Below are positions 16,205 through 47,089 of a stretch of 64,000 nucleotides of DNA, in pieces; within the stretch, counting starts at the first letter, position 1, and the number at the start of each line of letters is the position of its first letter. The DNA lies in assembly GCA_050575255.1 (NCBI GenBank), contig JBNZDD010013704.1:6925006-6989005 (forward strand). The letters are read 5' to 3'. Origin of the DNA: Harriotta raleighana (Eukaryota). The notes under the pieces were generated by a model. It did no database searches. It was not told the origin of the DNA and worked only from the letters and a program-made list of their open reading frames with translations. A program made the position numbers and the translations under genes.

Positions 16205-17085
16205 TTGCTTCTCCCTATCTCTGCCCTATTGCAGCCTCTCTCTCCTCCTCTTCTCAGTAAATTGATGTGTTCCTCGCTCTCTCCATTTTCCAATTGGCAG
16301 CCTTGCCTTCTATACTCAATTCTTCTTCTTCCCTATCTCCCTTTCCCCCCTTCACTCCCTCTTCCCTCTTGCCCCCCTTTCTCCCCATTTCTCCCTGATT
16401 TTACCCTCCACCCACCTTTCCCTCCCTCTTCCCCCTTGCCACCATTTCTCCCTCCTTGTCCTCCCTGATTTCCCACTTGTCCCCCTTTCTCCCCCCATTT
16501 TCCTCCCTGATTTTACCCCACCAGCTTTTCCCTCCATCTCCCCCCTTGCCATCTTTTCCCTCTTTCTCCCCCGGCTCCATTTCTGTGTCTGTTTGTGGGA
16601 CACTGCTGTGCGCAATTTGGCTGCCGCATTTCACCCCCAAATTTACATCTGGTTTTCCTGCTCTCTTCCCCCTACCCCGAACCCTCGCCTTACCCTCTTT
16701 CCCCCTTTCATCCCTGGCCCCCTCACTTCCACGACTGTTTGTTGGACACTGCTGTGCACAATTCGGCTGCCGCATTTCACCCACAAATATACAGTCAATT
16801 TTCCTACGCCTTCCCACTACCACGACCCCTCCTCCCCTGCTCTAAGACACCATTCAGTGTGGAGGGCGCTATATAAATTGAAGTTGTTGTTGTTGTTGCT
16901 CTGGCTCCTACCCCTTTCCCCCCTTTCTTCCCCCTTTTTTCTCCCTACCCCGACCCCCACCCCACCCCCCCACCTGCTCTGGTCCCTACCTTGGGACGTT
17001 GTCGTATTCTGTAAAGCGCTTTGGGACGTCGATAAGATGTGGAAAGAGCTATATAAATCTAAGTATTATGATTATTATTATTATT
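16205..17085 (+). mobile_element. Pyrimidine-rich tract with duplicated Deu segments and SINE/L2 tails
   Basis: Two GGACACTGCTGTG...GGCTGCCGCATTTCACCC copies (~16590 and ~16735), C/T-rich linkers, and tails ending (TTG)n and (TTA)n. Confidence 0.75.
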
Positions 17086-44164: not shown

Positions 44165-44864
44165 TCCATCATTGTCCATCACCTCCACAACATCGCCAGA
44201 TTCCGCCACTACCTCAGCCCCCGCACCGCCAAAAACCCTCATTCACGCCTTTATCACCTCCAGGCTTGACTACAGGGATTCTCTCCTTGTCGGCCTTCCC
44301 AACTCCTCCCTTCACAGGCTGCAGATCATTCAGAATTCTGTAGCCCGTGTACTCTCCCACACCAGGCTTCGTGATCACATCACTCCCATCCTCGCCCATC
44401 TTCACTGACTCCCCATTCCCCAGAGGATTGACTTCAAGATCCTCGTCCTCACCTTCAAGGCCATTCACAGCCTTGTCCCCGCCTATCTCTCTGACCTGCT
44501 GACTCCCTATCAGCCTGCCCGCACCCTCCGTTAAGCAGACTCAGGCCTGCTCCGTGTCCACCGTCCTAACCACCCAACCATCAGTGGTCAAGCTTTCAGT
44601 CTCTCTGCCCCCACATTATGGAACTCCATCCCACAGTCCCTCCGCCTTGCTTCCTCCCTTTCCTCCTTCAAGGTCGGTCTCAAGACCTTCCTCTTCGACC
44701 GCACCTTCGGTTTCTCCCCCCCCCCCAACTCTTCCCACTCTCCTTCCCCCTCCCCCTACCCCCTCATGCTCGGGTCCCGACCTGACTGTTCAGCGCTTTG
44801 GGACATCCTCCTAACATGAAAGGCGCTATACAAGTGTAATTTTGTTGTTGTTTTTGTTGTTGTT
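44165..44864 (+). mobile_element. L2 LINE 3' fragment, well preserved
   Basis: KTLIHAFITSRLDY...LQIIQNSVARVL...HITPILAHLH, RIDFKIL motif and (TTG)n tail. Confidence 0.95.
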
Positions 44865-45789: not shown

Positions 45790-46015
45790 TGTGAGGGACT
45801 GAGGTGGAAGCTTTTTCCAGGGGAGGAAAAAAAATGGTGGAGGGCTTAGAAGAGGGGGGTGGGGGCGATATGGGAGGAGAGAGAGAGAGACAAGAAAGTG
45901 GTCCAAGATGGCTTGGCTGTGATAGATAGGTCAGAAATGTCAAGGCCATGTTTGATGATAAGGTTAAAGACATGGCCACAGTTGTGGGTGAATTGATATG
46001 GAGGGTGAAGTTTAG
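45790..46015 (-). mobile_element. L2 endonuclease-region fragment
   Basis: NFTLHINSPT motif, shared with NFSLHINSANHIHGH at 51432-52030. Confidence 0.7.
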
Positions 46016-46037
46016 AATAAACTTAATCGACATAAAA

Positions 46038-46452
46038 ATGGCGGCGGAGGAGGGTTTGGCGCCGCCGCCGCCACCGCAGCCGCTGTCACGACCAGAACCG
46101 ATACTGCTACCGAGGACCGCGGGCGCACGATGCAGATCTACGTCGCTTGCGTCTGTGTGTGCGGGGAACTGGGACAGGTACACCAGAGCACGGCGTCGTC
46201 TTCAGCGCCCATGGACGAGATGAGCTCGCTCGTCAGTGACATCTTTGAGCAGCTCACCTGCGAGGCCTTTTGTCTGGTCAGGAGCTGCAGGCAGAGGACC
46301 ATCTCGTCATGGCGGACCATCTCGTCACAGGAGACTATCGCGTCCCGGGAGATCCCGACCAGTGGTCGAGCTGTTGCTGCCAGGCGAACTCGCCAGATAT
46401 ACCGTGTCCAAGGTACCAGGGCCATCACCGAATCATCTGGTACAGCAGCTGA
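46038..46452 (+). pseudogene. Divergent, intronless histone H2B-like gene with frameshifts
   Basis: Reconstructed core VCVCGELGQVHQSTASSSAPMDEMSSLVSDIFEQLTCEAFCLVRSCRQR(TISS..)TIASREIPT/VVELLLPGELARYTVSK/GTRAITE/YSS* aligns to the H2B histone fold at about 43/85 identities. ATG in AAAATGG context at 46038, TGA at 46450-46452. Confidence 0.9.
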
Positions 46453-46515
46453 GGAGCCAGTCAGTTTTGGGGCCTTTTCACCACACTGGGCCTGGTTCCC
46501 GCCTTTTTGATGGAC

Positions 46516-46603
46516 TGTTGTTAATTGTTGTTGTTGCTTTTGCTGTTGTTTCTGTTGCTTTTTTTGTTTATTGTTGTTGATGTTGTTGTTTGTTGTTGTT
46601 GTT
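46516..46603 (+). repeat. Imperfect (TTG)n microsatellite
   Basis: Direct reading. Confidence 0.9.
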
Positions 46604-46639
46604 TAAATCCCCCGTGCCCCCTGACCTTTTCCGCTCACA

Positions 46640-46933
46640 AAAATAATAATCCTTGCATTTGTAATAGCGCTTTATCACATCGTCTACACATCTCAAAGTA
46701 CTTCACACAATGTACTGGAAAGTGAATTGACTGTATATTTGTGGGCGAAACCTGGCAGCCAATTGTGCACAGCAGTGTCCCACAAACAGTCATGGCTAAA
46801 TTATTATTATTGGGTATTTTTGAGGGACTATCAGGCATGTGGAGTAAGGAAACTTGCCCATAGTTTTGTCCTGCCAGGAATCAAACCCAAATCTTTCGCT
46901 TATGAGGCGAGTGCTCTAACCACTGAGCTACAA
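46640..46933 (-). mobile_element. Full-length tRNA/CORE/Deu-type SINE
   Basis: Tail through to head GTGCTCTAACCACTGAGCTAC. Confidence 0.9.
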
Positions 46934-47089
46934 GGTGGTGGTAGTATAAGAGAAAACCAAGGGATGTGCCACTCAACTACCAATGGTGAATCACCTCCTA
47001 ATTAAAGGGATTTAATATCAAAGGGAACCAATTATGCATTGCATTTGTACATTGAAATATTTCAGGTAAGTACTCTGACAAGTTAAGCT

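Follow-up and report, generated by a model that had tools for sequence, protein, structure and literature searches.

The histone-like locus of the analyzed window (64,000 nucleotides of the Harriotta raleighana genome) is a dead, cut-short copy of a dispersed repeat, not a lone histone gene. Very probably, it is a neutrally decaying, 3'-truncated member of a composite family with a head derived from an H2B variant and RUNDC1, a family that likely was spread as RNA by a LINE. The copies fall into subfamilies O, M and Y. The histone part of the element is carried along as a passenger, and no histone is made from it.

The locus in the window

Inspection of the open reading frames and their translations reveals an intronless H2B fold, the relic being scattered over three frames, with 41 of the 81 aligned residues identical to the canonical H2B of the same genome; in this respect, the preliminary description, which reported a split, intronless fold with about 50% identity, was accurate. 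The Pfam Histone match is weak (E 0.068), and the PDB matches are to H2B. There are three frameshifts in total, one of them family-wide; in addition to those listed for the fold (Table 1), the head, which is lengthened by short tandem duplications, carries a private +1 at ~46119 relative to the Y majority. Within the fold, an 18-bp unit is present in three copies (46296, 46314 and 46332) compared to two in the Y majority, and the RUNDC1 relic carries a private 39-bp deletion after 46510. These indels, for which confirmation in the reads had been proposed, are genuine and not assembly errors: in the evidence at hand, which consists of contigs only, with all four sequencing runs coming from one study, a contig at single-copy depth (run X1) spans 46090-46454 free of gaps, with 8 substitutions, another (X2) spans 46090-46250, likewise free of gaps, and a third joins the 5' flank to the element over 45914-46195 with 6 gap letters (X3). 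When runs X5 and X6 were compared, matches to simple repeats only were obtained.

Table 1. Parts of the truncated repeat and related elements in the window
Feature	Coordinates	Strand	Evidence
5' part of the ~1.1-kb composite repeat, Y subfamily, 3' half absent	46035..46636	+	80% over 644 columns to Y majority; start and end common to copies
Head: AAAATGGCG start, then sequence of the parent H2B variant's N-tail, rich in Gly/Arg	46035..46129	+	aligned with parent-type pseudogene L105 and O, M and Y copies
Relic H2B histone fold	46130..46449	+	private +1 at ~46360; family-wide -1 at ~46413
Relic of RUNDC1 coding exon 1, contains the supposed stem-loop	46451..46515	+	continuity through O, M, Y and the window copy
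(TTG)n tract, belongs to the element	46516..46605	+	found in O, M and Y majorities
Start of pyrimidine tract; the window copy ends at 46636	46606..46636	+	
Separate tRNA-headed SINE adjoining the break	46642..46934	-	Rfam tRNA 46870-46934 minus, 43.1 bits
LINE 3' end, candidate partner family, with the tail common to full-length elements	44726..44844	+	81.5% over 119 nt
Second relative, 5'-truncated, without H2B head	16320..16843	+	82% over 328 columns to pyrimidine tract

Two features ascribed to a histone gene in the preliminary description have other origins. The head aligns with the Gly/Arg-rich tail of the parent variant, and therefore the proline-rich N-terminus (MAAEEG...) is an off-frame reading, which is closed by TAG in 22 of the 32 copies with a readable site. 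The supposed collapsed stem-loop at 46469-46484 is RUNDC1 coding sequence, with a predicted fold energy of -1.0 kcal/mol and no match to the Rfam histone 3' stem-loop at E<=1. Of the features of a replication-coupled H2B gene, neither an intact ORF nor a 3' stem-loop is present at the locus.

The central piece of the SINE that adjoins the break corresponds to a piece in the missing 3' half of the element (92% over 60 nt). In the head-less relative, traced over 16320-17080, the SINE piece is duplicated and three tails of different LINE/SINE types are stacked.

Structure and abundance of the family

The locus was previously considered solitary, but in a DNA search of the same genome all 40 scored candidates (of 2123) match, with the main matches at 69-79%. 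The copies are spread over many contigs and share common boundaries but lack a reverse transcriptase of their own. Exact 16-mers yielded 94 Y-type and 31 M-type matches compared to 0 in reversed controls. In copies drawn independently of the pattern, the matching 16-mer is carried by 9/25 in Y and 13/32 in M, so that these counts translate into ~260 Y and ~75 M copies; a second estimate for Y, from carriage in 10/39, is ~360. Thus, the H2B-bearing copies are estimated at about 300-450 in the genome, the head-less copies being additional.

In the unit of ~1.1 kb, the AAAATGGCG start is followed by H2B-derived sequence and the RUNDC1 relic; (TTG)n and a pyrimidine tract come next, and a SINE piece and a tail complete the 3' end. 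The start motif, presumably YY1-like, was found by a crude pattern in at least 21/45 Y, at least 11/32 M and at least 4/7 O. The SINE piece (~70 nt) is common to the tRNA-headed SINE of this genome; we would liken it to a Deu domain, with sequence sharing seen only with the local tRNA-SINE. The 3' tail, which terminates in ATTG, TTG or ATT repeats, is present in 32/45 Y, 22/32 M and 2/7 O, and many copies are 5'-truncated. A tRNA, 5S or 7SL head was sought, and no Rfam match was found over the head in four full-length loci or in the window; a tRNA head of the element is accordingly ruled out.

Several copies deviate from this plan. In L082, L012, L013 and L034, the ATTG tail is replaced by the ATT type of the tRNA-SINE, pointing to tail exchange. 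Six copies (L023, L032, L040, L046, L049 and L050) form a branch of Y whose 5' end differs and is longer. Old copies L102/L103 and L107/L116/L139 are part of a more extensive duplicated block, the flanks of which are shared.

The RUNDC1 relic was identified through the old copy L133, which is 81% identical to Callorhinchus milii RUNDC1 over 95% of 62 aa; the 16-aa RUNDC1 piece of the window alone yields no BLASTP match. Exon 1 was not found at the actual RUNDC1 gene (C13201), where the assembly has gaps. Three relatives (two in L146, one in L196) carry RUNDC1 sequence that reaches further upstream and no H2B, suggesting from sequence comparison that RUNDC1 was the first of the two captures. 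The M majority contains a continuous 130-aa H2B-RUNDC1 frame that starts at a new ATG, so that this middle subfamily may briefly have carried a predicted in-frame fusion.

Subfamilies and neutral decay

From the 104 projected rows, we removed 11 that represent genes or their pseudogenes and 7 with poor alignment, leaving 7 O, 32 M, 45 Y and 2 intermediate copies. Some of the 7 O rows, from which the ancestor was reconstructed with the C. milii protein P0002 as guide, are segmental duplicates. Diagnostic changes separate the subfamilies, which move stepwise away from the histone in the order O, M, Y. The -1 frameshift at ~46413 is present in all readable copies of M (26/26) and Y (33/33) and in 0/7 O. 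The window copy belongs to Y and differs from the Y majority at 6.2% of the non-CpG sites (Y mean, 6.4%).

The copies decay neutrally, as a selection analysis suggested beforehand shows: the raw pN/pS ratios are 0.94 (Y) and 0.72 (M), and omega on all private changes is 0.96-1.15 after correction for the mutation spectrum. Purifying selection in M was rejected because the raw 0.72 rose to ~1 upon this correction. The frame is still open in only 3/29 M and 4/37 Y near-full copies. The abundance of CpG at the locus (o/e 0.90 for the H2B-like stretch vs 0.36 for the whole window) had been considered a poor fit to neutral decay. The source, however, was CpG-rich (o/e 1.09), and the value for the window copy, 0.82, is within the Y range of 0.67-1.09; the locus remains rich in CpG because the CpG bases in Y have decayed by only ~14%.

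A>G excess on the source lineage

Changes on the source lineage, in contrast to those in individual copies, are dominated by A>G. In the H2B part, 22 A>G vs 4 T>C are found among 39 changes (p = 0.0025), namely, 13 A>G of 23 changes from the parent to M and 9 of 16 from M to Y, with 2 and 8 ambiguous codons masked, respectively; among 1622 private changes, A>G accounts for 5%. The RUNDC1 part points in the same direction (of 11 changes, 4 are A>G and 0 are T>C), and the conserved 3' end does not (1 and 4 of 12).

ADAR editing of the RNA intermediate is our leading candidate for the cause of these changes, with a likelihood slightly below even. Both components of an ADAR-type pattern, strand-specific A>G and a 5' neighbor bias, are present: A was changed in 11 of 16 cases after U or A compared to 11 of 39 after C or G (p = 0.007, the sites being not fully independent). 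The ten diagnostic M/Y sites, 9 of them A>G, travel almost as a block, with only two mosaics (L130 and L023) among 79 copies, and A>C and A>T changes are few.

Against these observations has to be weighed the possibility, to which we give an even chance, that the same retroposon acquired the A>G changes without ADAR, through selection for A-poor RNA or misincorporation by the LINE reverse transcriptase. A-poor RNA could be favored through escape from silencing or from premature polyadenylation. The A content of the fold falls from 0.22 to 0.17 to 0.14, and the whole element is A-poor. Furthermore, the candidate edited sites are not enriched in predicted intramolecular pairing (p = 0.79; 8/60 random sets are equally stable), and no single copy is hyper-edited, the mean being 1.5 A>G per copy and the maximum 6. 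Among private changes of low count, A>G and T>C hardly differ in number (M, 32 vs 36; Y, 36 vs 34); when all private changes are included, A>G (67/2294) exceeds T>C (56/3025) in Y (p = 0.013), with p = 0.61 for M. Rarity of G 5' of the edited A is a signature of ADAR, at 5.8% in the Xenopus data given in PMC2873906; in the element, G precedes 4 of the 22 changed A, a weaker depletion.

Two further proposals were rejected. GC-biased gene conversion would lift T>C equally and does not fit, and long-range pairing of the head with the pyrimidine tract as an editing substrate finds no support. The fuller scenario, in which successive source copies of a histone/RUNDC1-headed SINE-like family were founded by ADAR-edited RNA, A-to-I editing thereby entering the germ-line genome and driving subfamily evolution, with a transient fusion frame in M, is tentative, and we judge the odds to be somewhat against it.

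Partner LINE and mode of spread

In at least 15 of 20 LINE loci, the 3' end matches the last ~120 nt of the element at 81-87% identity. The LINE that shares this tail encodes Exo_endo_phos_2 and RVT_1 domains, that is, it is an APE-RT LINE, and is abundant (7632 candidates); we take it to belong to the L2 clade. Target-site duplications of at least 8 nt were found in 2/23 copies vs 0.6 expected, none above chance; such duplications are often lacking with L2/CR1 partners. The 5' start of the element is not common to the LINE copies examined, which rules out a 5' end shared with the LINE in these copies. In L048 (55-1143, minus strand), a partner-type LINE fragment is inserted inside a Y element. 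It sits within the pyrimidine tract of the element, so that this arrangement is a later insertion and not a template-switch chimera; therefore, the LINE must still have been active once Y insertions had started.

We infer that RUNDC1 exon 1 was first joined to a body consisting of the TTG tract, pyrimidine tract, SINE piece and LINE tail, the front of which would then have been replaced, probably by template switching, with H2B-variant coding sequence. The GC-rich head, a putative promoter, could have provided pol II transcription in the germ line, and the LINE would have copied the element RNA via target-primed reverse transcription, recognizing the shared 3' tail. New source copies would have founded M and then Y, bearing the A>G changes that most likely come from ADAR editing.

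It seems quite improbable that the copies instead arose as plain processed pseudogenes from a single, rapidly evolving H2B-RUNDC1 fusion gene with high expression, without any element-to-element amplification step, even if the frame of the M majority is what such a gene would leave behind, the subfamilies could be its stages, and germ-line H2B variant retrocopies are on record in the relevant part of PMC8857922. Short repeats and no poly(A) mark the LINE-type tail of the copies, and it is this 3' tail that is conserved whereas the coding part is not. In the H2B part, 32 of the 39 source-lineage changes are non-synonymous, and the Y fold has lost all its K, Y and N residues. Finally, no intact source gene was found among the 150 scored of 600 candidates.

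Parent H2B variant

The preliminary description derived the locus from a divergent H2B variant and not from canonical H2B, and this part of it stands. For the intact old copy L082, the best named vertebrate matches (83-84%) are the C. milii proteins annotated as 'late H2B.L4-like' (P0002/P0003), with 84% identity to the C. milii variant over 83 aa; the element shares PNTGISSSAM, CEA and YYLIQYSKRQ with this variant, and the Y majority fold is identical to it in 56/81 positions. In the fold tree, the element and the C. milii variant, the source of its head sequence, form a group with a support of 97/94. The AU test rejected a clade with canonical H2B (p = 1.5e-5) and a clade with H2B.K (p = 1.7e-5), the latter being represented by proteins, either named or inferred as such, of birds, fish, amphibians, reptiles and the coelacanth, with no mammal; both origins are hence ruled out.

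In the present genome, the parent variant is represented, among the 150 scored of 600 candidates, only by the pseudogene L105, which has a stop and a frameshift and, being intronless, may itself be a retrocopy. A 5'-truncated young element lies ~350 bp downstream of it on the same strand (L105/L148 7352-7800; G000:C13655).

A functional or recently functional, H2B.K-related gene at the locus, as the preliminary description hinted, is refuted and has next to no probability left. Its FEQLTCEA does resemble FEQLACEA, which is indeed present in human H2B.K (PMC8857922), CpG content is high, and the locus is present in other samples; but, apart from the AU test, the three frameshifts, the neutral decay and a separate two-exon H2B.K-like pseudogene elsewhere in the genome all speak against this reading. 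The Q and T of EQLTCEA in the window are private CpG transitions from the ERLACEA of the family, and the H2B.K rows of dog, rabbit, elephant, cow and zebrafish given in PMC8857922 lack the Cys. Common to H2B.K and the element are the variant H2B and the occurrence of intronless retroposed copies. H2B.K differs in belonging to another clade and in having an intron and REVQ, and the H2B.K retrocopies (PMC8857922) are few and, unlike the element, form no self-standing family.

Other H2B variants were encountered in the search. The H2B.K-like pseudogene just mentioned (L190, 2423-2301 and ~706-457, minus strand; G000:C13502) has an intron after YKVLKQ and stops in both exons. Two proteins from sharks and rays, P0269 and P0330, are likewise placed close to H2B.K (90/77, unstarred). 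The sequence relationships suggest that H2B.K is older than bony vertebrates. Of a second H2B variant (MPEVVGK..., RQTISS), one intact and one broken copy as well as a distant pseudogene were encountered (L065, L067 and L188; G000:C13217 and C13689).

Implications and comparison with known retroposons

No histone-headed retroposon was met in the searched literature, including the pertinent part of PMC8232201, with Repbase, Dfam and subscription journals lying outside its scope. Here, outside primates, an amplified SINE-like element takes its head from protein-coding exons and not from a small RNA, and fossil intermediates record how the element was assembled. The element preserves a chimaera H2B variant that is seemingly lost in this genome, which implies germ-line expression of that variant. 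If the A>G series reflects editing, it would document a rare natural case in which retrotransposition has fixed RNA edits in DNA, with a polarized protein outgroup. In practical terms, hundreds of false H2B matches will confuse histone annotation in chimaeras.

By analogy, the family appears to work like a SINE with a LINE-derived tail, yet it lacks a pol III head. SINEs of this type, among them the DeuSINE SacSINE1 and SINE2-1_CM (PMC3747384, PMC4824008), resemble the element in the LINE 3' tail and the short terminal repeats, and a further parallel is the central piece that the element has in common with the tRNA-headed SINE of the genome. Unlike SINEs with a LINE-derived tail, the element has no tRNA, 5S or 7SL head but a protein-coding one, and it is ~1.1 kb long. 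The nearest analogue is SVA_F1, which, as outlined in PMC3287187, arose by gaining sequence of the host gene MAST2. Both are composite, non-autonomous elements with an internal low-complexity tract; SVA is LINE-mobilized and very likely transcribed by pol II (PMC3287187), and the same would hold for the element. According to the same account, SVA has poly(A) and target-site duplications and uses L1, whereas the element has a LINE-homologous tail and no such duplications. Moreover, the element made two coding captures, the H2B variant and RUNDC1; no sequence shared with SVA is expected.
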